Shown here: piece after piece, positions 1 through 54,651 of the stretch
Position numbering within the stretch: position 1 is the stretch's first letter
Layout of the letters: each line of letters begins with the position of its first letter
Source of the DNA: Candidatus Moraniibacteriota bacterium
GTDB taxonomy: Bacteria; Patescibacteriota; Minisyncoccia; Moranbacterales; UBA1568
Length of the DNA: 64,000 bases
Reading direction: 5' to 3'
Assembly: GCA_013334245.1 (NCBI GenBank)
Contig: JAAXXZ010000002.1
Span: forward strand, 21,166 to 85,165
Notes under the pieces: generated by a model
Database searches by the model: none
The model's input: only the letters and a program-made list of their open reading frames with translations
Told to the model about the DNA's origin: nothing
Made by a program: the position numbers and the translations under genes

Positions 1-2
1 GG

Positions 3-1949
3 TATTATGCCGCAGGCAAGATCAAGGGATCGCGCTTCATCAAGCGCGAGGGCCGTCCTTCGGACGACGCCATCCTTTCGGGGCGGGCGGTGGACCGTAC
101 GGTGCGACCGCTGTTCGACGGACGTATGAGAAGCGAGGTGCAGGTCGTTACGACCGTGCTTTCGTTCGACGGTGAGAACGATCCGGATCTCGTGGCGATC
201 ATCGCGGCCTCGGCGGCGCTCGCGATTTCCGATATTCCATGGAACGGTCCGGTCGGGGCGGTTCGGGTCGGACGGATCAACGGCGGCGATTTCATCCTGA
301 ATCCGACGACCGAAGAGCGCGAGAGTTCGCAGAATGCGCTTGACCTCATGATTTCCGGAACCAAGGACAAGATCAACATGATCGAGGCGGGAGCCAACGA
401 GATTCCCGAGTCTGAGATGGCGGAGGCTTTCAAGTTCGGTTTCGAGAGCGTTCAGAAGATCGCCACCTTCATAGAGGGTATCCGCGCCGAAATCGGAAAG
501 CCGAAGTCGGAAGCCATCATGCTCGCCGGCCCGGAAGGATTCGACGAGGATTTGAAAGCGTTCCTTCGAAAGGAAGGACTTTCCGAAGCCCTTTTCGCCT
601 TGGGGAAGAAAGAGGAAAAGGAAGCTCGCTTCAATGAGATCGCGAAGAAAATGAAGGAATACATCGCCGAAAAGTATCCGGAACAGGCATCCGGGTTGGG
701 CGAGGTTTCTTCCTTGGTCATGGACGAGGTTTCCGACGAGATATTGCACGAGAAAATCCTGAAGGAGGGTATCCGACCGGACGGACGCAAACTCGATGAG
801 ATACGGACCATCACGTCGCATGTCGGCGTGCTGCCGCGTACGCATGGGACCGGTCTCTTTACCCGTGGCGAGACGCAGGCGCTGACCGTGACGACCCTCG
901 GCGCTCCCGGCGATCAGATGATCGTGGACACGATGGAGGTCGACATGAAAAAACGGTACATGCATTTCTACAATTTCCCGCCGTATTCGGTGGGAGAGGT
1001 AAGGCCGATGCGCGGCCCTGGGCGGCGCGAAGTCGGACATGGAGCACTCGCGGAGAAGGCCCTTTTGCCGGTGTTGCCGCCGTTTGAGACATTCCCGTAC
1101 ACCATCCTGCTCGTTTCGGAGGTACTTTCCTCGAACGGCTCTTCGTCCATGGCGTCCACCTGCGGATCGACACTGTCGCTCATGGACGCGGGTGTTCCGA
1201 TCAGGAAGCCGGTCGCGGGCATCGCGATGGGCATAGTCGAGGGTGACGGCGAGTACCGCGTACTGTCGGATATACAGGGACTCGAGGATCACTTCGGCGA
1301 CATGGACTTCAAGGTCGCTGGGACCGCGGACGGTATTACGGCCATGCAGATGGACGTCAAGATAGACGGACTTACGCCGGAGACGCTGGCAGAAGCGCTG
1401 AAACAGGCGAAGGAAAGCCGCCTCTTCATCCTCGGAAAGATGCTCGAGACGATAGCCGAGCCGAGACAGCAGATGTCGGCGTATGCGCCGCGCATCATCA
1501 CCCTGCACATCAACCCGGAGAAGATTCGCGACGTCATCGGTCCGGGTGGCAAGATGATCAATAGGATCATCGATGAGACCGGAGTTTCCATCGATATAGA
1601 GGACGATGGATCGGTTTTCATCACCTCGACCGACGAGACAAGCGCCAAGACCGCCGTCGAATGGATCAATAACCTGACGCGTGAGGTGAAGGCCGGGGAG
1701 CTTTTCCAGGGTCGCATCACGAGACTGATGAACTTCGGAGCGTTCGCGGAAGTGCTGCCGAATCAGGAAGGGCTTATCCATATCTCCGAACTGGCGGACT
1801 ACCGTGTCGAGAAGGTGGAAGACGTCGTCAAGGTCGGTGATGTCATTCCGGTTGTCGTCAAGGAGATCGACAGTCAGGGACGAATCAACCTTTCGCACAA
1901 GGCGGCCGTCCGAAGACTCGAGTCGGAGGGTCAGGCGAGCGCCGAGTAA
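3..1949 (+). CDS. pnp: Polyribonucleotide nucleotidyltransferase (5'-truncated by window edge)
   Basis: RNase PH motifs (RREVGHG, SNGSSSMAS, GDMDFKVAG), KH (IGPGGKMI) and S1 domains; frame is open to the window start. Confidence 0.97.
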   Translation, partial: YYAAGKIKGSRFIKREGRPSDDAILSGRAVDRTVRPLFDGRMRSEVQVVTTVLSFDGENDPDLVAIIAASAALAISDIPWNGPVGAVRVGRINGGDFILNPTTEERESSQNALDLMISGTKDKINMIEAGANEIPESEMAEAFKFGFESVQKIATFIEGIRAEIGKPKSEAIMLAGPEGFDEDLKAFLRKEGLSEALFALGKKEEKEARFNEIAKKMKEYIAEKYPEQASGLGEVSSLVMDEVSDEILHEKILKEGIRPDGRKLDEIRTITSHVGVLPRTHGTGLFTRGETQALTVTTLGAPGDQMIVDTMEVDMKKRYMHFYNFPPYSVGEVRPMRGPGRREVGHGALAEKALLPVLPPFETFPYTILLVSEVLSSNGSSSMASTCGSTLSLMDAGVPIRKPVAGIAMGIVEGDGEYRVLSDIQGLEDHFGDMDFKVAGTADGITAMQMDVKIDGLTPETLAEALKQAKESRLFILGKMLETIAEPRQQMSAYAPRIITLHINPEKIRDVIGPGGKMINRIIDETGVSIDIEDDGSVFITSTDETSAKTAVEWINNLTREVKAGELFQGRITRLMNFGAFAEVLPNQEGLIHISELADYRVEKVEDVVKVGDVIPVVVKEIDSQGRINLSHKAAVRRLESEGQASAE

Positions 1950-49494: not shown

Positions 49495-50967
49495 ATGAGC
49501 GTCAAGAAGAAGCCCGTAAAAAAGCCGGTGAAAAAGGGTTCGAAAAAGCCTGTGAAAAAGGTGGCCCCGAAGAAGCCCGTAAAAAAGACGTCTTCAAGCA
49601 AAGCGGCAATGAAAAAGCTGGTGAAAAAGGTTGTTTCGAAGAAGGTTCCAGCGAAAAAAGTAACATCGATACCGAAAAAGACCGTGAAAAAAGCACCGAT
49701 CAAGAAAGTCATCGCCAAGTCCGTTCCGAAGAAGGCTGCGCCAAAGAAAGCGGCACCGAAGAAACTTCCGTCGAAGCAGGCGAAGGCGGCGCCAAAAAAG
49801 AAGGTGTCCGCTCCGAAGTCGGAACCGAAGAAAACCAAGGCCGAGGTCAAGAAGGAAGAGAAGAATGACGCGTTCGAGGAGATCGTGAACCGTGGCAAGC
49901 AGCGCGGTTTCGTGACGGAAGACGAGATCATCCATATCCTCCCGGATGTCGAGACCGACCTCGATGCCCTTGAACGGTTGTATGGAAGTCTTGAAGAGGC
50001 CGGTGTCCGCGTGGTCACGTCCGACGAGATGCTCAAGGTGGAGACCGACCAGATTGCCGAGACCTTCGAGACCGTCAAGGAGAAGGTGCCGAAGAAGAAA
50101 TCCCAGGAGCGCCCTCAGCCGGTGGACGGTGAGGATGATACCTCCGATCTCGTGCAGATGTATCTTCGGGAAATCGGTCGTGTCGCGCTTCTGAACGCCG
50201 AGGAGGAAGTGCGTCTTGCCAAGAATATCGAAAAGGGCGATATCGCGTCCAAGCAGAAGCTGACCGAGGCAAACCTTCGTCTTGTGGTCTCGATCGCGAA
50301 GAAGTATGTCGGCCGTTCACACAATCTCTCCCTTCTCGATCTCATTCAGGAGGGGAATATGGGGTTGTTTCGCGCCGTCGAGAAATTCGATTATCGCAAG
50401 GGGTATAAGTTCTCGACGTATGCCACCTGGTGGATCCGTCAGGCCATCACCCGCGCACTCGCGGACCAGTCCCGTACTATCCGCATCCCGGTCCATATGG
50501 TGGAGACGATCAATAAGTATCTTCAGGTAACCCGACGACTGGTTCAGGACCTTGGCCGTGAACCGTTGCCGGAGGAGATCGCCGCGGAAATGGGCATGGA
50601 GGTTGACAAGGTCCGTCATATACAGAAGATCTCGCAGGAGACCGTCTCCCTCGAGACGTCCATCGGGGACAGCGACGATGATTCGGTGCTGGGCGATTTC
50701 ATCGAGGACACCGAAACCGTCATGCCGAACCAGTCCGCAGCACGAAAGCTCCTGAAAGAGCATATCGCCGACATTTTGGGCGAGCTGACTCCTCGCGAGC
50801 AGAAGATCCTTCGGATCCGGTTCGGTCTCGAGGACGGTGTGACTCATACGCTCGAGGAGGTCGGTCAGGAGTTCGGCGTCACTCGCGAGCGCATCCGACA
50901 GATCGAGGCCAAAGCGCTCGAGAAGATCCGCGAGCACGACAACGTGAAGAAGCTCCGGCATTACTAA
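49495..50967 (+). CDS. rpoD: Primary sigma factor with Lys/Ala/Pro-rich N-terminal extension
   Basis: [41 protein letters not shown]; follows dnaG. Confidence 0.97.
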
Positions 50968-51121
50968 AACTCGTCGAAAGCATGCCCCGTAGCAGAGTCC
51001 GCGAGGCTTTACGGGGTCAAAAGCCCATAAAGTCTATCAAGTCGGAATGTGGGGGCTGAATCAGGAATAGGGAATAAGGAATCAGGAAAGAACGCAAGAA
51101 TCCGTCCGAAAGGGCGGATTC

Positions 51122-51150
51122 TTGCCAATATGGAAGGGTTTGGTTATACT
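51122..51150 (+). promoter_or_regulatory. Promoter of the tRNA-Asn/GIY-YIG unit
   Basis: TTGCCA-17 nt-TATACT. Confidence 0.65.
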
Positions 51151-51180
51151 GTCTCTGTTTCAAGTTCGCTTGAAAATCAG

Positions 51181-51232
51181 ATTCCGGTGTAGCTCAACCC
51201 AACGGGTCCCCTTCGGGGGCGGTAGGGCAGGG
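51181..51232 (+). pseudogene. tRNA-Asn 5'-half copy with a 22-nt double-hairpin insert in the D-loop
   Basis: attccggtgtagctca[acccaacgggtccccttcgggg]gcggtagggcaggg; degenerate second copy at 51496-51547. Confidence 0.8.
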
Positions 51233-51245
51233 TGAATTAAATGAT

Positions 51246-51608
51246 ATGAAGTATTTTGTTTATCTTCTGCAGAGCGAAAAAGATAAGCGTTTTTATATCG
51301 GTTCGACATCGGATCTTGAAAAAAGACTGACGTACCATAATCGCGGTTCGAACAAGTCGACACGGCATAGGAGACCGTTGAAGCTTGTACACGTCGAGGA
51401 GTACGATGAGAAGTCGGATGCGACGAAACGAGAATTTCTTCTGAAAAGTCCGAAAGGTTTTTTGGAAAAGAAGAGAATTATAGAAGATGTACGAAATTCC
51501 GGCGAACCTCAAACAAACGGGTTCCCTTCGGGTGTGGCAGAGCAGGAGAAAGGAGTTTCGTTTGATGAGAATGGTGATGTCTTGAAAGAGAATGATATTC
51601 CGGTGTAG
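51246..51608 (+). CDS. Small GIY-YIG nuclease family protein
   Basis: YFVYLLQS....FYIGST.DL..RL..HN.G, A..RE..LKS; stop codon lies inside tRNA-Asn. Confidence 0.9.
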   Translation: MKYFVYLLQSEKDKRFYIGSTSDLEKRLTYHNRGSNKSTRHRRPLKLVHVEEYDEKSDATKREFLLKSPKGFLEKKRIIEDVRNSGEPQTNGFPSGVAEQEKGVSFDENGDVLKENDIPV

Positions 51609-51670
51609 CTCAGCGGTAGAGCAGGGGACTGTTAATCCCTTGGTCGCAGGTTCGAATCCTGCCGCCGGAG
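51599..51670 (+). tRNA. tRNA-Asn (anticodon GTT)
   Basis: TCCGGTG/CGCCGGA acceptor stem, loop CTGTTAA, GGTTCGAATCC; CCA not encoded. Confidence 0.95.
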
Positions 51671-51754
51671 CCGACAAATGCAAGGCCACCCATTCGGGTG
51701 GCTTTTGCGTTTGCTTCGGCTCCGAGCGGAGCGAGTGAACGGTTTCACTCGCGT

Positions 51755-52051
51755 CAGGATTCGAAAGGCGGAGCGTCGTTCGGTCAGCAGACCGGACAGC
51801 GAGCCGGGGTCGAGGAATTATCCCGCGACGGCGGGATAATATTTGTGACCGAATCCGCCGCCGGATATTCAGATGTGCTTCCGTCAGGATGAGAACGCCG
51901 GAGCGTCTTTTGCCAGCAGGCAAAAGCGCTTGTCACGTCGCTCACGAACGACGTGATGAAACGGTGCCCAGCCCGAGGGGCGCGACGGCGCACCGAGAGG
52001 CGAGTCACGTCATTCGCGAACGACGTGGCGAGGGAGCATCCTGCCGCCGGA
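51755..52051 (+). repeat. Two tandem tRNA-Asn 3'-end-bounded structured elements
   Basis: caggattcgaa...gaatccgccgccgga (51755-51865) and caggatgagaac...atcctgccgccgga (51885-52051). Confidence 0.75.
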
Positions 52052-52375
52052 ACCCTGTGCCGTTTTCTGAATTTTCAGGGCATACTGCCGTTTACGAAAT
52101 ATGATGTTATTTGATTCTTCCAGTATTTCCAAAGATAACTTTACCGAAAGATTATCCGTCACGTTCAGGACAAGTCTATTCCCGAATTTCTCGTGCAACG
52201 GCCGAAGGAATTCATCTCCCCAGGAAGGGGAAAACGTGGTTACCCCGTCAAAATCGACGATGACATCTTGATTGTCTTTGACATCATTGAGAGTCGGAGT
52301 AAATGCTGAAAGCGCCTCTTTTCCGGCCTGGCGGGAGGTGAGGACAGTCCCGAATTTTTTCAGTTCGATGTTCAT
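52010..52375 (-). CDS. STAS-like (DUF4325) protein
   Basis: LTSRQAG, VDFDGV..FSPSWGDE. Confidence 0.8.
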   Translation of the reverse strand: MNIELKKFGTVLTSRQAGKEALSAFTPTLNDVKDNQDVIVDFDGVTTFSPSWGDEFLRPLHEKFGNRLVLNVTDNLSVKLSLEILEESNNIIFRKRQYALKIQKTAQGSGGRMLPRHVVRE

Positions 52376-52386
52376 ATCGGTCAATT

Positions 52387-53112
52387 CTAAAAAGTGATGT
52401 ACGTGAAGCATCCCGAAACGGTATCCGGCGTTTCCTGGATATCAAGGCCGGTCCTTTCCTTTGAGATTTCAACGGTCGCGTTACCGGTCTGAAAGAATAT
52501 GTCCATATTCGCGATCGGAGCGACTTTTCTCACGAACTTTAGTCCGTTGCCTCGTTCCTCGGGGGCTCTTCCGGAAAGAATCTCCGTGAACGCCGTCCTG
52601 AGCGCCTCCGCATCATTCTTCAGGGATGGCTTGACTCGCTTCAACGTTTTCAGGATGCCTTGTCCCTTGTCCGCGAGAACGATCTGTCCTTTTGCGACGT
52701 CATAGCCGAAAAATATGCCTCGGATATCCGGCCAGTTGCCGATATTATGATCGTAGGAGTTGTTCCCGATTTCGCTGGTAGCCGCCACGATAAGGGAAAA
52801 CGAGGCGCTGAGGTCGGGGTTTAACCGCAGATCTCGCTCCAGATTCTCGATTCTTGATTGAAATACGGCTGTGCTGGGACAGTAAAAGTCCGGAGGGGGC
52901 AGTGTTCCATTGGGAGCGTTCAGCCACTCTATCGCCTGGTTATACAAAGAGTCTCCCAGAAAAATTCGGATTTTTCGTACTGAAAAACGCCGACTCCCAC
53001 CCGGGGTCCGAATCGCGGTCAGTTTCCCGTTCTTATCCCACGCCCTGAGCGTGGTAGGGGTAACGCCGAGTATTTTCGCCGCCTTTCCTATCGATATGTA
53101 TTCTTCGTCCAT
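52387..53112 (-). CDS. MerR-type HTH fused to a HATPase-like domain
   Basis: SIGKAAKILGV...TLR.WD..G...RTPGGSRR; EIGNNSYDH, LADKGQGI, RGNGL. Confidence 0.8.
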   Translation of the reverse strand: MDEEYISIGKAAKILGVTPTTLRAWDKNGKLTAIRTPGGSRRFSVRKIRIFLGDSLYNQAIEWLNAPNGTLPPPDFYCPSTAVFQSRIENLERDLRLNPDLSASFSLIVAATSEIGNNSYDHNIGNWPDIRGIFFGYDVAKGQIVLADKGQGILKTLKRVKPSLKNDAEALRTAFTEILSGRAPEERGNGLKFVRKVAPIANMDIFFQTGNATVEISKERTGLDIQETPDTVSGCFTYITF

Positions 53113-53287
53113 ATTTCGGAAATATATTCACAGTGTATCAAAAGTTATAAATATTGTCAAAGAATATAAAAATATATAAATCTGAATATTATATATAAAT
53201 AAATCTTTACTCCCCGACATCTTCGGGAGGGAGTATGACTTCGATAATCCATCTTCTGATTTTGCGTAGCATTCGCATGGCGAATGA

Positions 53288-53983
53288 CTACTTCTCATTC
53301 TCGATTGCCACGTTCAGGAAGAAGATCGTTTCACTTTTCAGTTTCGCGCGGGCCCAGTCTTTTTGCGGTTCACCCAGGAGTTCTCCGAGGCCGTCGAGGA
53401 TATGCCGGTCGTCCATGTGCTCAAGCATATCGACGCACTTTTGCAGGGCCTCTTTGAAGGGGAGTCCGGAACGCTGCTCCGCTATTTCGCGGTTGATCTC
53501 CCAGCCTTGTTTGAAGAAATAATACACGTCGAAGACATCGCGGCTCGTTTTGCCGATCCGTTCGTACATGGCCATGAGCTTGTGCGCGAACATGTCCGGC
53601 TCGGTCATGACGAGCATGGAAATCCCCAGAAAGGTCTTCATCTCGTAGTTCGATCCGAACTGTCTTCGGTTGATCTCGATCTTTATATTCTGCGCTCCCG
53701 CCTCGTATGAAATAACGGTAAGCAGATTGAAGCGTTTTCTATGGGAATCCACGATGACCCCGTACGTTTCGGCGATTTTCTGGATTTTCCCGAACACGAA
53801 CTCCTCCTTGGAGTCGTCCAAGAGATCGAGATCGATATCGACCGAATATCGGTCGAGACCGTAGAAGAGCATCGCGGCCGTCCCGCCCTTGAATCCGAGG
53901 TACGGAGCGATAGTCGTATCGGTATAGATATCCTTGAGGATCCGGAGCAGGATGCTCTTATGTTTGGCGTAGTTCGCAGCCAT
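53288..53983 (-). CDS. AbiEii-family nucleotidyltransferase toxin (type IV TA)
   Basis: FKGGTA.ML.Y.L.R.SVDIDL, HKL.A, RDVFD. Confidence 0.9.
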   Translation of the reverse strand: MAANYAKHKSILLRILKDIYTDTTIAPYLGFKGGTAAMLFYGLDRYSVDIDLDLLDDSKEEFVFGKIQKIAETYGVIVDSHRKRFNLLTVISYEAGAQNIKIEINRRQFGSNYEMKTFLGISMLVMTEPDMFAHKLMAMYERIGKTSRDVFDVYYFFKQGWEINREIAEQRSGLPFKEALQKCVDMLEHMDDRHILDGLGELLGEPQKDWARAKLKSETIFFLNVAIENEK

Positions 53984-53984
53984 A

Positions 53985-54581
53985 TCATTTCGTGTTTATG
54001 AAGTTCCGGTGAAATTTCCGTACCTGTTTTTCCAGCCGCTTGTTGCCATATACGGGCAGGATTTCGAAAACCTTGTCCCAATCCAAGACATTCAGGCTAT
54101 CGAAGTAATATTCCTTGGTCACATACAACCGGTCCAGAAAAGCCCGCTCTTTCGTAGCCCAGGCGACGCCGTTTCTATGATCGATTCCCGTGGTATCGCT
54201 CAAGACGGAACTTTTCATGCGGACATAGTTGATTTTCTGACCGTTAGCCTCTATCTCGCGGTTCAGATACGATGCGACGAAGATATTCCCATAGTACTGG
54301 AAACTGACTCCTTCACGGGTCAAAACGGTCTCGAAGCCGATATAGGAGGGGGTATAGATCCGCGTCGCCAGCTCGTACCGGTCGTAGTTTTCGTCTTTGG
54401 CATACAGGCCATGGCGGACCCGTAACAGCTTCCCTGCGCGGATGTACTTCTTCAGGCGATTGGTGATGGTCGCACTCTCTGATTCGCCCCACAGCAAAGC
54501 CACGTCCTGAACGGAGAAGACGGTTTTCGATGATCGTAGCAGTATTTCCAGGAAATTTCCCTTTGAAGGTCTATTTTCCAT
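53985..54581 (-). CDS. AbiEi-like antitoxin/transcriptional regulator
   Basis: wHTH G.L.RVR.GLY, PSYIGFETVL, ATKERAFLD; directly upstream of abiEii. Confidence 0.85.
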   Translation of the reverse strand: MENRPSKGNFLEILLRSSKTVFSVQDVALLWGESESATITNRLKKYIRAGKLLRVRHGLYAKDENYDRYELATRIYTPSYIGFETVLTREGVSFQYYGNIFVASYLNREIEANGQKINYVRMKSSVLSDTTGIDHRNGVAWATKERAFLDRLYVTKEYYFDSLNVLDWDKVFEILPVYGNKRLEKQVRKFHRNFINTK

Positions 54582-54586
54582 ATATG

Positions 54587-54619
54587 TACTGATATGGTAC
54601 TTTAAGTACCCTTTCAGTA
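54587..54619. promoter_or_regulatory. Inverted repeat, putative AbiEi operator
   Basis: tactgatatggtactt-t-aagtaccctttcagta (14/16 match). Confidence 0.6.
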
Positions 54620-54651
54620 ACAATAGTAGCATATTTTGATACTGCGCGCAA

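Follow-up and report, generated by a model that had tools for sequence, protein, structure and literature searches.

A GIY-YIG nuclease gene and a 22-nt palindrome form an insertion cassette at a tRNA-Asn gene of a Candidatus Moraniibacteriota bacterium

Inverted doublets of a short hairpin lie beside a small enzyme gene in REP/REPIN systems, where the enzyme is RAYT, an HUH tyrosine transposase, and Rickettsia palindromic elements insert in frame into protein genes. The tRNA-Asn locus described here resembles both, with an inverted hairpin doublet next to a small enzyme gene and with in-frame insertions. Unlike in REP/REPIN-RAYT, however, the enzyme is a GIY-YIG nuclease and copy numbers are low (1-4 exact matches to the hairpin module per genome). 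Among GIY-YIG proteins, as far as the available portions of the respective papers go, four further systems come close. The single-domain nuclease SsnA binds a hairpin in single-stranded DNA and cuts a few bases away while ignoring double-stranded DNA and RNA, and its authors raise a mobile-element idea for SsnA (cd10448) with the NTS/SRM hairpin repeats (PMC11893778). Standalone prokaryotic Slx1-like/UPF0213 proteins are described as likely repair enzymes (PMC1564403). SegB of T-even phages is enriched beside tRNA genes of many isotypes and promotes duplication of tRNA-bearing segments (PMC13096335), and rRNA genes of CPR bacteria carry GIY-YIG-coding, non-intron insertions that were judged to lie outside homing (PMC11270868).

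The locus shares one trait or another with each of these systems. Like Ssn, it pairs a single-domain GIY-YIG protein, about 90 aa long, with a hairpin repeat of its own that is also found by itself in the genome; unlike in the available description of Ssn, the repeat is a head-to-head doublet within a tRNA copy, and the gene lies inside a target duplication. In its main text, the Ssn paper never uses the word 'tRNA' (0 occurrences; PMC11893778). The Slx1-like/UPF0213 proteins (PMC1564403; PDB 1ywl, 1zg2) are the closest solved relatives and likewise consist of a minimal domain without extras; the one UPF0213-like locus examined (L301) is surrounded by protein genes and has no annotated tRNA. 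As with SegB (PMC13096335), the GIY-YIG gene is enriched beside tRNA genes of many isotypes, but SegB is phage-borne and the accessible part of its description mentions neither a hairpin module nor a partial tRNA copy. As in the CPR rRNA insertions (PMC11270868), small GIY-YIG genes lie within structured-RNA genes and outside introns, whereas that source, in the portion available, concerns rRNA only (0 mentions of tRNA) and describes no duplication or module. These three, Ssn/SRM (PMC11893778), SegB at phage tRNAs (PMC13096335) and the CPR rRNA insertions (PMC11270868), are the nearest published pieces, judged from the available parts of each. In the literature searched (mostly main texts of non-subscription papers), we found no description of tRNA-duplicating GIY-YIG cassettes; the cassette is a real and, apparently, undescribed nuclease and palindrome element.

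The locus follows rpoD in a genome of 1.12 Mb (G000). Coordinates without a contig name refer to the window, the whole stretch of 64,000 nucleotides that was analysed. All the parts listed by an earlier, sequence-only reading were found in their places (Table 1), and the stop codon of the nuclease gene is indeed supplied by the intact tRNA. The first partial tRNA copy (copy 1, 51181-51232) comprises tRNA positions -2 to 14, a 22-nt insert and positions 15 to 28 with one mismatch; the second (copy 2, 51496-51546) matches copy 1 at 80% identity across 51 nt. A promoter-like stretch is likewise present at sites without the cassette (G001, G006) and is therefore not a cassette part. That no integrase or transposase lies nearby also held, as the only matches in the genome, one Pfam integrase and one weak Y1 transposase (Y1_Tnp), are both on other contigs. 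Over the locus, no Rfam family but tRNA reached its gathering score. Behind the tRNA, at 52010-54632 on the - strand of the window, lies a variable region with a DUF4325 STAS-like gene, a MerR-HTH gene and an AbiEi/AbiEii toxin-antitoxin pair. The locus itself joins two unrelated things, a nuclease cassette at the 5′ side and a separate repeat system at the 3′ side.

Table 1. Features of the tRNA-Asn locus in window coordinates.
Feature	Position	Strand	Remark
Promoter-like site TTGCCA-17-TATACT, sigma-70-type, of the host, for the tRNA-Asn gene	51122..51150	+	
Left copy of the 16-bp duplication (tRNA-Asn positions -2..14)	51181..51196	+	joint with the empty allele
22-nt double mini-hairpin module at the D-loop position	51197..51218	+	head-to-head doublet of one hairpin across relatives
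Resumed tRNA piece, positions 15-28, one mismatch	51219..51232	+	between module and nuclease leader
GIY-YIG ORF, 120 aa	51246..51608	+	PF01541
Second 5′ copy with module, decayed	51496..51546	+	now translated within the protein tail
Right copy of the 16-bp duplication	51597..51612	+	start of the working tRNA
tRNA-Asn(GTT), intact, intron-less	51599..51672	+	
Terminator-like hairpin extended by a fold-back copy of the tRNA 3′ end	51676..51765	.	carries a 25-nt hairpin; fold-back copy at about 51716-51765
First 3′ module, tRNA-linked-repeat-like	51766..51865	+	ends in a direct tRNA 3′-end copy, 51851-51865 (one base missing)
Second 3′ module with inner inverted repeat	51875..52054	+	ends in a direct tRNA 3′-end copy, 52038-52054

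The 5′ side is a recent insertion into the tRNA-Asn gene, 416 bp long (51181-51596) and accompanied by a 16-bp duplication of the tRNA 5′ end. We compared it with Logan contigs from run X1 (possibly the source sample), run X2 (another sample of the same study) and run X3 (another study). The X1 contig covers 50839-51624 with 0 differences to the filled allele and the X2 contig 51137-51624 with 1 difference; as both span the cassette, a misassembly was ruled out. The X3 contig, 16,765 nt long and 99% identical, matches 50700-51180 with 5 differences over 481 nt and then presents an exact empty site: 51180 is joined to 51597, 416 bases are skipped and 16 letters fit both sides. Such a skip with shared bases is the empty site with target duplication expected of an insertion sequence or integrative element; the transposase or integrase expected of either is lacking from the 416 bp, which hold only the GIY-YIG ORF. 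In 7/7 same-genus genomes (G001-G007), the site is also empty, with the tRNA directly behind the promoter, and the comparison of filled and empty sites that the sequence-only reading had proposed thus came out in favour of insertion. The ORF core has a GC content of 0.41 versus 0.54 for the genome. The filled allele keeps a whole tRNA gene and differs only in its upstream context. Among the contigs of four runs, no excised circle or head-to-tail joint was found, which counts against a mobile element. In another genome (G027), locus L077, one of 29 other-genome loci, has a GIY-YIG gene just before tRNA-Asn that is only 38% identical and, judging by this divergence, probably stems from a separate invasion.

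At 51632/51633, the X3 contig has 630 extra bases before it continues into the 3′ array, which could be followed to 52004. After position 35, in the anticodon loop, an intron of about 630 nt interrupts the tRNA-Asn of five of the seven same-genus genomes (G001, G002, G004, G005 and G006; loci L055:1873-2503 in G001 and L054, L057, L058 and L061) and that of the X3 contig. Its ORF bears an HNH-like motif, recognised by eye; no Rfam family matched the intron at gathering score, and it is likely a group I intron. An intron-less filled allele, set against intron-bearing X3, G001, G002, G004, G005 and G006, would fit a host that keeps the cassette in order to protect or refresh its tRNA genes, for example against introns or integrating elements, or to restrict incoming DNA in the manner of SsnA, which modulates transformation according to the available part of its description (PMC11893778). 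However, G003 and G007 lack both intron and cassette, run X2 has cassette and intron contigs at similar depth (unphased), and the distribution is patchy and includes decayed copies. We therefore regard domestication by the host as highly improbable.

By sequence and structural model, the encoded protein belongs with the standalone Slx1-like GIY-YIG nucleases; its catalytic residues are intact, and it is predicted to be active. Residues 2-70 match PF01541 (E 8e-17, 61.7 bits vs a cut-off of 22.6), which places it in the GIY-YIG superfamily. A core of ~83 aa holds Y6, Y17, R27, H31 and E63, the first four invariant and E63 nearly so in 42 sequences, and the last ~35 residues are read-through across copy 2; close relatives are mostly 84-93 aa long (in a search limited to 45-146 aa) and often end inside the tRNA. 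The AlphaFold model has a pLDDT of 95, and the best fold and sequence matches are UPF0213 (1zg2, 1ywl) and Slx1, with I-TevI weaker. The protein is a minimal domain nearer to Slx1, 1ywl and 1zg2 than to UvrC or I-TevI, in line with standalone Slx1-like/UPF0213 proteins. Its nearest nuclease relatives are from Patescibacteria, including a Moraniibacteriota record. Carriage by a phage or plasmid was dismissed, because only distant matches were found: 21 records in phage sets, without a close relative, and 3 plasmid records, all at <60% identity, and one locus in IMG/VR at 39% identity.

The coexistence of empty and filled alleles in near-identical strains would also be expected of free-standing homing, in which a naive tRNA-Asn allele would be cut as double-stranded DNA and the cassette copied in by gene conversion, the hairpin merely protecting the left copy. 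One sub-clade of the nucleases keeps to tRNA-Asn across hosts, and SegB is, in the part of its description available, a tRNA-associated free-standing GIY-YIG homing endonuclease (PMC13096335). Yet the filled allele retains the whole tRNA gene, the presumed target, and would be recut. Moreover, no DNA-binding domain of the kind found in SegB/I-TevI-type homing endonucleases was detected beyond the 83-aa core, and the score for group I intron endonucleases (TIGR01453) was 30 bits, below the cut-off of 56 bits. Homing also leaves unaccounted for the solo modules in protein genes and the occurrence of one module type at five tRNA types, both described below. On balance, this explanation is unlikely, though the most probable of the alternatives.

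Relatives of the nuclease are widespread, with matches at E<=1e-8 in 224/401 phylum genomes. By tblastn, G000 itself has 7 GIY-YIG places, of which 4 (Asn, Tyr, Trp and Lys) have the order 5′ copy, hairpin, gene and tRNA; the others are one in a likely 23S rRNA (by eye), one Ssn-like gene and one remnant at tRNA-Met. The Tyr, Trp and Lys cassettes (G000:C23:33110-34750 and C31:57030-58460) have other hairpin types, and hairpin-bearing 3′ tRNA copies lie downstream of the Trp and Lys cassettes. At G000:C29:11746-12045, the GIY-YIG gene stands between short inverted repeats, apparently inside the 23S rRNA, and L025 is a similar case.

Across the phylum, we analysed 109 relatives among 150 matches listed of 570 (29 non-self loci and 80 in rank order, a set leaving out own-genome rows and several loci at contig ends). 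A same-strand tRNA lies within 300 bp in 75/109 (47 downstream, 8 on both sides, 20 upstream), compared with 319/20,000 random intervals (1.6%) in a control drawn from G000 only; an opposite-strand tRNA lies within 300 bp in 0/109. For 34/109, no tRNA was called within 300 bp (29 with full flanks, 5 cut off). Where a tRNA lies downstream, an exact cognate 5′ copy is present upstream of the gene in 36/55 loci vs 1/550 non-cognate controls, which is not chance. The predicted enrichment near tRNAs and the predicted link between nuclease and tRNA 5′ fragments across genomes were thus both found, and together with the empty alleles and cognate copies they support the claim that 5′ tRNA halves, hairpin and nuclease form one tRNA-targeting unit. 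The family does not have one architecture, however, because 34/109 lack a tRNA and, among the 20 loci lying only downstream of a tRNA, 17 lack a 3′ copy behind the gene (present in 3/20); by eye, many of these 20 have hairpins right after the tRNA 3′ end. Four of the tRNA-free loci (L216, L238, L268 and L258) involve other RNA genes: three extend into the 5′ portion of an RNase P RNA gene, and one borders directly on tmRNA, with a fragment that bears a hairpin. Tandem copies of the unit occur in L006, and the layout was also recognised by eye in records labelled Bacteroidales, Terriglobia, Melioribacter and Omnitrophota.

A FastTree tree was built from 184 proteins after removal of duplicates, of most Pelagibacter-like loci and of sequences that were short or broken. 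It places the query in a 25-member clade with a support of 0.955. The module consensus of this clade is a perfect palindrome of two 11-nt mini-hairpins. With up to 5 mismatches to this consensus, the module is present in 19/25 clade members vs 2/154 other loci, the in-clade count being partly circular, as the consensus was derived from the clade itself, and kin not being independent. As the same module is found at copies of Asn, Met, Val, Ser and Ile tRNAs, it tracks the clade of the protein rather than the type of tRNA. Adjacent hairpins with equal loops occur in 24/88 unique loci vs 6/1900 shuffles; the second loop is nearer to the reverse complement of the first in 21 of these doublets, a direct copy in 1 and tied in 2. 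The query clade contributes 14/24, and the 10 outside comprise 8 inverted, 1 direct and 1 tied. The folding energy of the module is not unusual compared with shuffles (z -0.55 and -0.95), so that its support comes from conservation and not from energy. The resumed tRNA piece is 14 nt long here, with a median of 8.5 and a range of 4-31 in 44 loci (a noisy, uncontrolled measure). In the mirror cases L007, L021, L031 and L091, the module comes after the gene, past about 9-11 tRNA bases (by eye).

A pattern search independent of the protein yielded 18 module matches in 11/401 genomes and 0 in a reversed control; the pattern required four middle bases and thereby missed the variant of G000 itself, and a corrected pattern covered 60 relatives. 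One of the 18 lies before a GIY-YIG gene at a tRNA, 5 are in tRNA 5′ copies without a GIY-YIG gene in the flanks examined, and the remaining matches outside tRNA copies lie elsewhere. A clean in-frame insertion of a 21-nt module is seen in G000, G001 and G006 in a gene that we take, from its motifs, to be mnmA, and is absent from G002, G004, G005 and G007 (3/7 with insertion); in G000 it makes up 7 codons at G000:C21:27984-28003 (L316). The DUF520/YajQ gene (PF04461) has an in-frame module insertion in 2/7 family genomes when compared with orthologues. From these in-frame solo insertions it follows that the module moves alone and works at the DNA level. Solo modules lie inside open frames at L285, L290, L274, L318 and L322, among them the DUF520/YajQ case just given; the other host frames are presumably fpg-, queA- and dnaX-like, by motifs only.

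Solo modules at tRNA copies without a nearby GIY-YIG gene (the 5/18 above) and the weak Y1_Tnp match in G000 might mean that the nuclease is a passenger: the hairpins would be moved by another enzyme, such as a Y1/RAYT-type transposase, or by template switching, and the gene would hitch-hike on tRNA duplications arising from transformation. But the module type tracks the nuclease clade, the module lies a short way before the gene and the protein has conserved its catalytic residues, and we consider a passenger role quite unlikely. The same module data bear on an RNA-level proposal that takes up the guide or decoy idea of the sequence-only reading: the nuclease would cut tRNA, and the tRNA halves, transcribed along with it, would serve it as guides, decoys or antitoxins. 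One promoter would indeed transcribe fragment, gene and tRNA together. Against such a role at the RNA level, the module stands in protein genes without tRNA context, the hairpin goes with the clade of the protein whatever the tRNA, and the nucleases of similar structure act on DNA. Fragment length and break point vary among loci, and copy 1 as RNA folds no better than shuffles (z -0.12). SsnA, in the available part of its description, neither binds nor cuts RNA (PMC11893778). The proposal thus turned out weak, and it is the least probable of the explanations weighed here.

Given its likeness to Ssn, we examined whether the query belongs to that group. Neisseria, Azospirillum and Rhizobium (SRM-flanked) together with Planktothrix and the C15 gene of G000 form a clade of 5 with a support of 0.998 that excludes the query; the Neisseria control was identified as ssnA from its similarity and flanks rather than from an annotation. 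The SRM motif was found at 0/109 loci and 0 times in window positions 50701-52150. As a control, 3/5 Ssn-like loci were positive on both sides, while Planktothrix and C15 were negative, showing that the motif misses some members. Owing to the separate clade and the lack of SRM, membership of the query in Ssn was rejected; by analogy, the cassette may nonetheless work in a way like Ssn/SRM. The C15 gene (G000:C15:56049-56330; L291) is an Ssn-clade GIY-YIG gene whose flanking SRM-like repeats are missed by the published motif.

The repeats behind the tRNA are a separate, older system that is independent of the cassette. The 3′ array stands at the empty X3 allele and is partly present in G002, G004 and G007. 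Modules ending in the cognate 3′ end also lie behind tRNA-Arg(TCG), tRNA-Lys(CTT) and tRNA-Met of G000; the Arg and Lys loci have no GIY-YIG gene, and the Met locus has a frameshifted one about 365 bp downstream. A single system spanning the 5′ and 3′ fragments was ruled out by the array at the empty allele and at nuclease-free tRNAs, and the earlier assignment of the fold-back and 3′-end copies to the nuclease was accordingly not borne out. A phylum search with the 3′ module gave short matches in 6/300 other genomes, none beside a GIY-YIG gene. In E. coli, tRNA-linked repeats (TLRs) lie behind a tRNA gene and end in about 18 bp of its 3′ end, and their function is given as unknown in the part of the source available (PMC8144298). 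Like TLRs, defined there by the last 18-19 bp, the array has cognate 3′ copies, of 15-17 nt behind Asn and likewise cognate at Arg, Lys and Met; unlike the TLRs described in that part, it has an apparently different core with a fold-back copy of the T-arm (PMC8144298). The Rfam family RtT gave no match up to E 5. The palindrome in the last 3′ module (51929-52032) also occurs alone, away from tRNAs, at G000:C11:37602-37637 and in other Patescibacteria (L303-L312). In G007, a remnant of this 3′ array is separated from tRNA-Asn by about 7 kb, and at G000:C31:1-900 a DUF559-like small gene (by eye) is flanked by several copies of another GC-rich palindromic repeat.

Overall, these data suggest a model to which we assign a probability of about 0.5. 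In it, the cassette is a selfish nuclease and palindrome element; it likely nicks DNA next to its hairpin, and host recombination then likely copies it into the site. The hairpin, in a single strand or as part of a cruciform, would be bound by its own nuclease, which, by analogy with SsnA, would nick a few bases away from it. A head-to-head doublet would offer one hairpin per strand and lead to nicks on both sides, which would fit the short tRNA piece between module and gene as well as the mirror cases. Conserved tRNA sequence would next give host recombination the homology for copying or amplifying the unit; the 16-base duplication leaves a whole tRNA, and only outcomes with one whole tRNA would survive. 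The protein would thus be the agent that cuts, acting on DNA at its own hairpin, and would move the cassette, as the autonomous form, and likewise the solo hairpins, as the non-autonomous one. tRNA genes may be favoured because of their conserved homology between species and because they provide a promoter for the gene. To our knowledge, the GIY-YIG domain has no strand-joining activity, which counts against this model, as does the module-bearing mnmA in G001 and G006, whose tRNA-Asn sites are empty.

More tentatively, and short of even odds, the cassette may represent a class of mobile element free of transposase, integrase and reverse transcriptase, in which a ~85-residue Slx1-like nuclease and a cognate 22-bp head-to-head palindrome form an autonomous/non-autonomous pair. 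In such a class, solo palindromes would insert into genes for tRNA, RNase P, tmRNA and proteins. Nicked symmetrically on each strand at about 10 nt from the palindrome, the DNA would undergo duplication by host repair, through which the nuclease gene would enter essential RNA genes non-lethally. Patescibacteria and other phyla would hold hundreds of such clade-specific pairs.

Slx1-like GIY-YIG proteins of the small, standalone kind abound and tend to be classed as repair enzymes without an assigned role. The exact pair of filled and empty alleles at tRNA-Asn makes the mechanism directly testable. If most of these proteins in Patescibacteria are selfish tRNA-gene cassettes, this would account for their abundance, for the pseudo-tRNAs around CPR tRNA genes and for the in-frame palindromes in core proteins. 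The cassettes would then be among the smallest self-spreading DNA units and would add to Ssn a rich natural collection of tiny nucleases with hairpin specificity.
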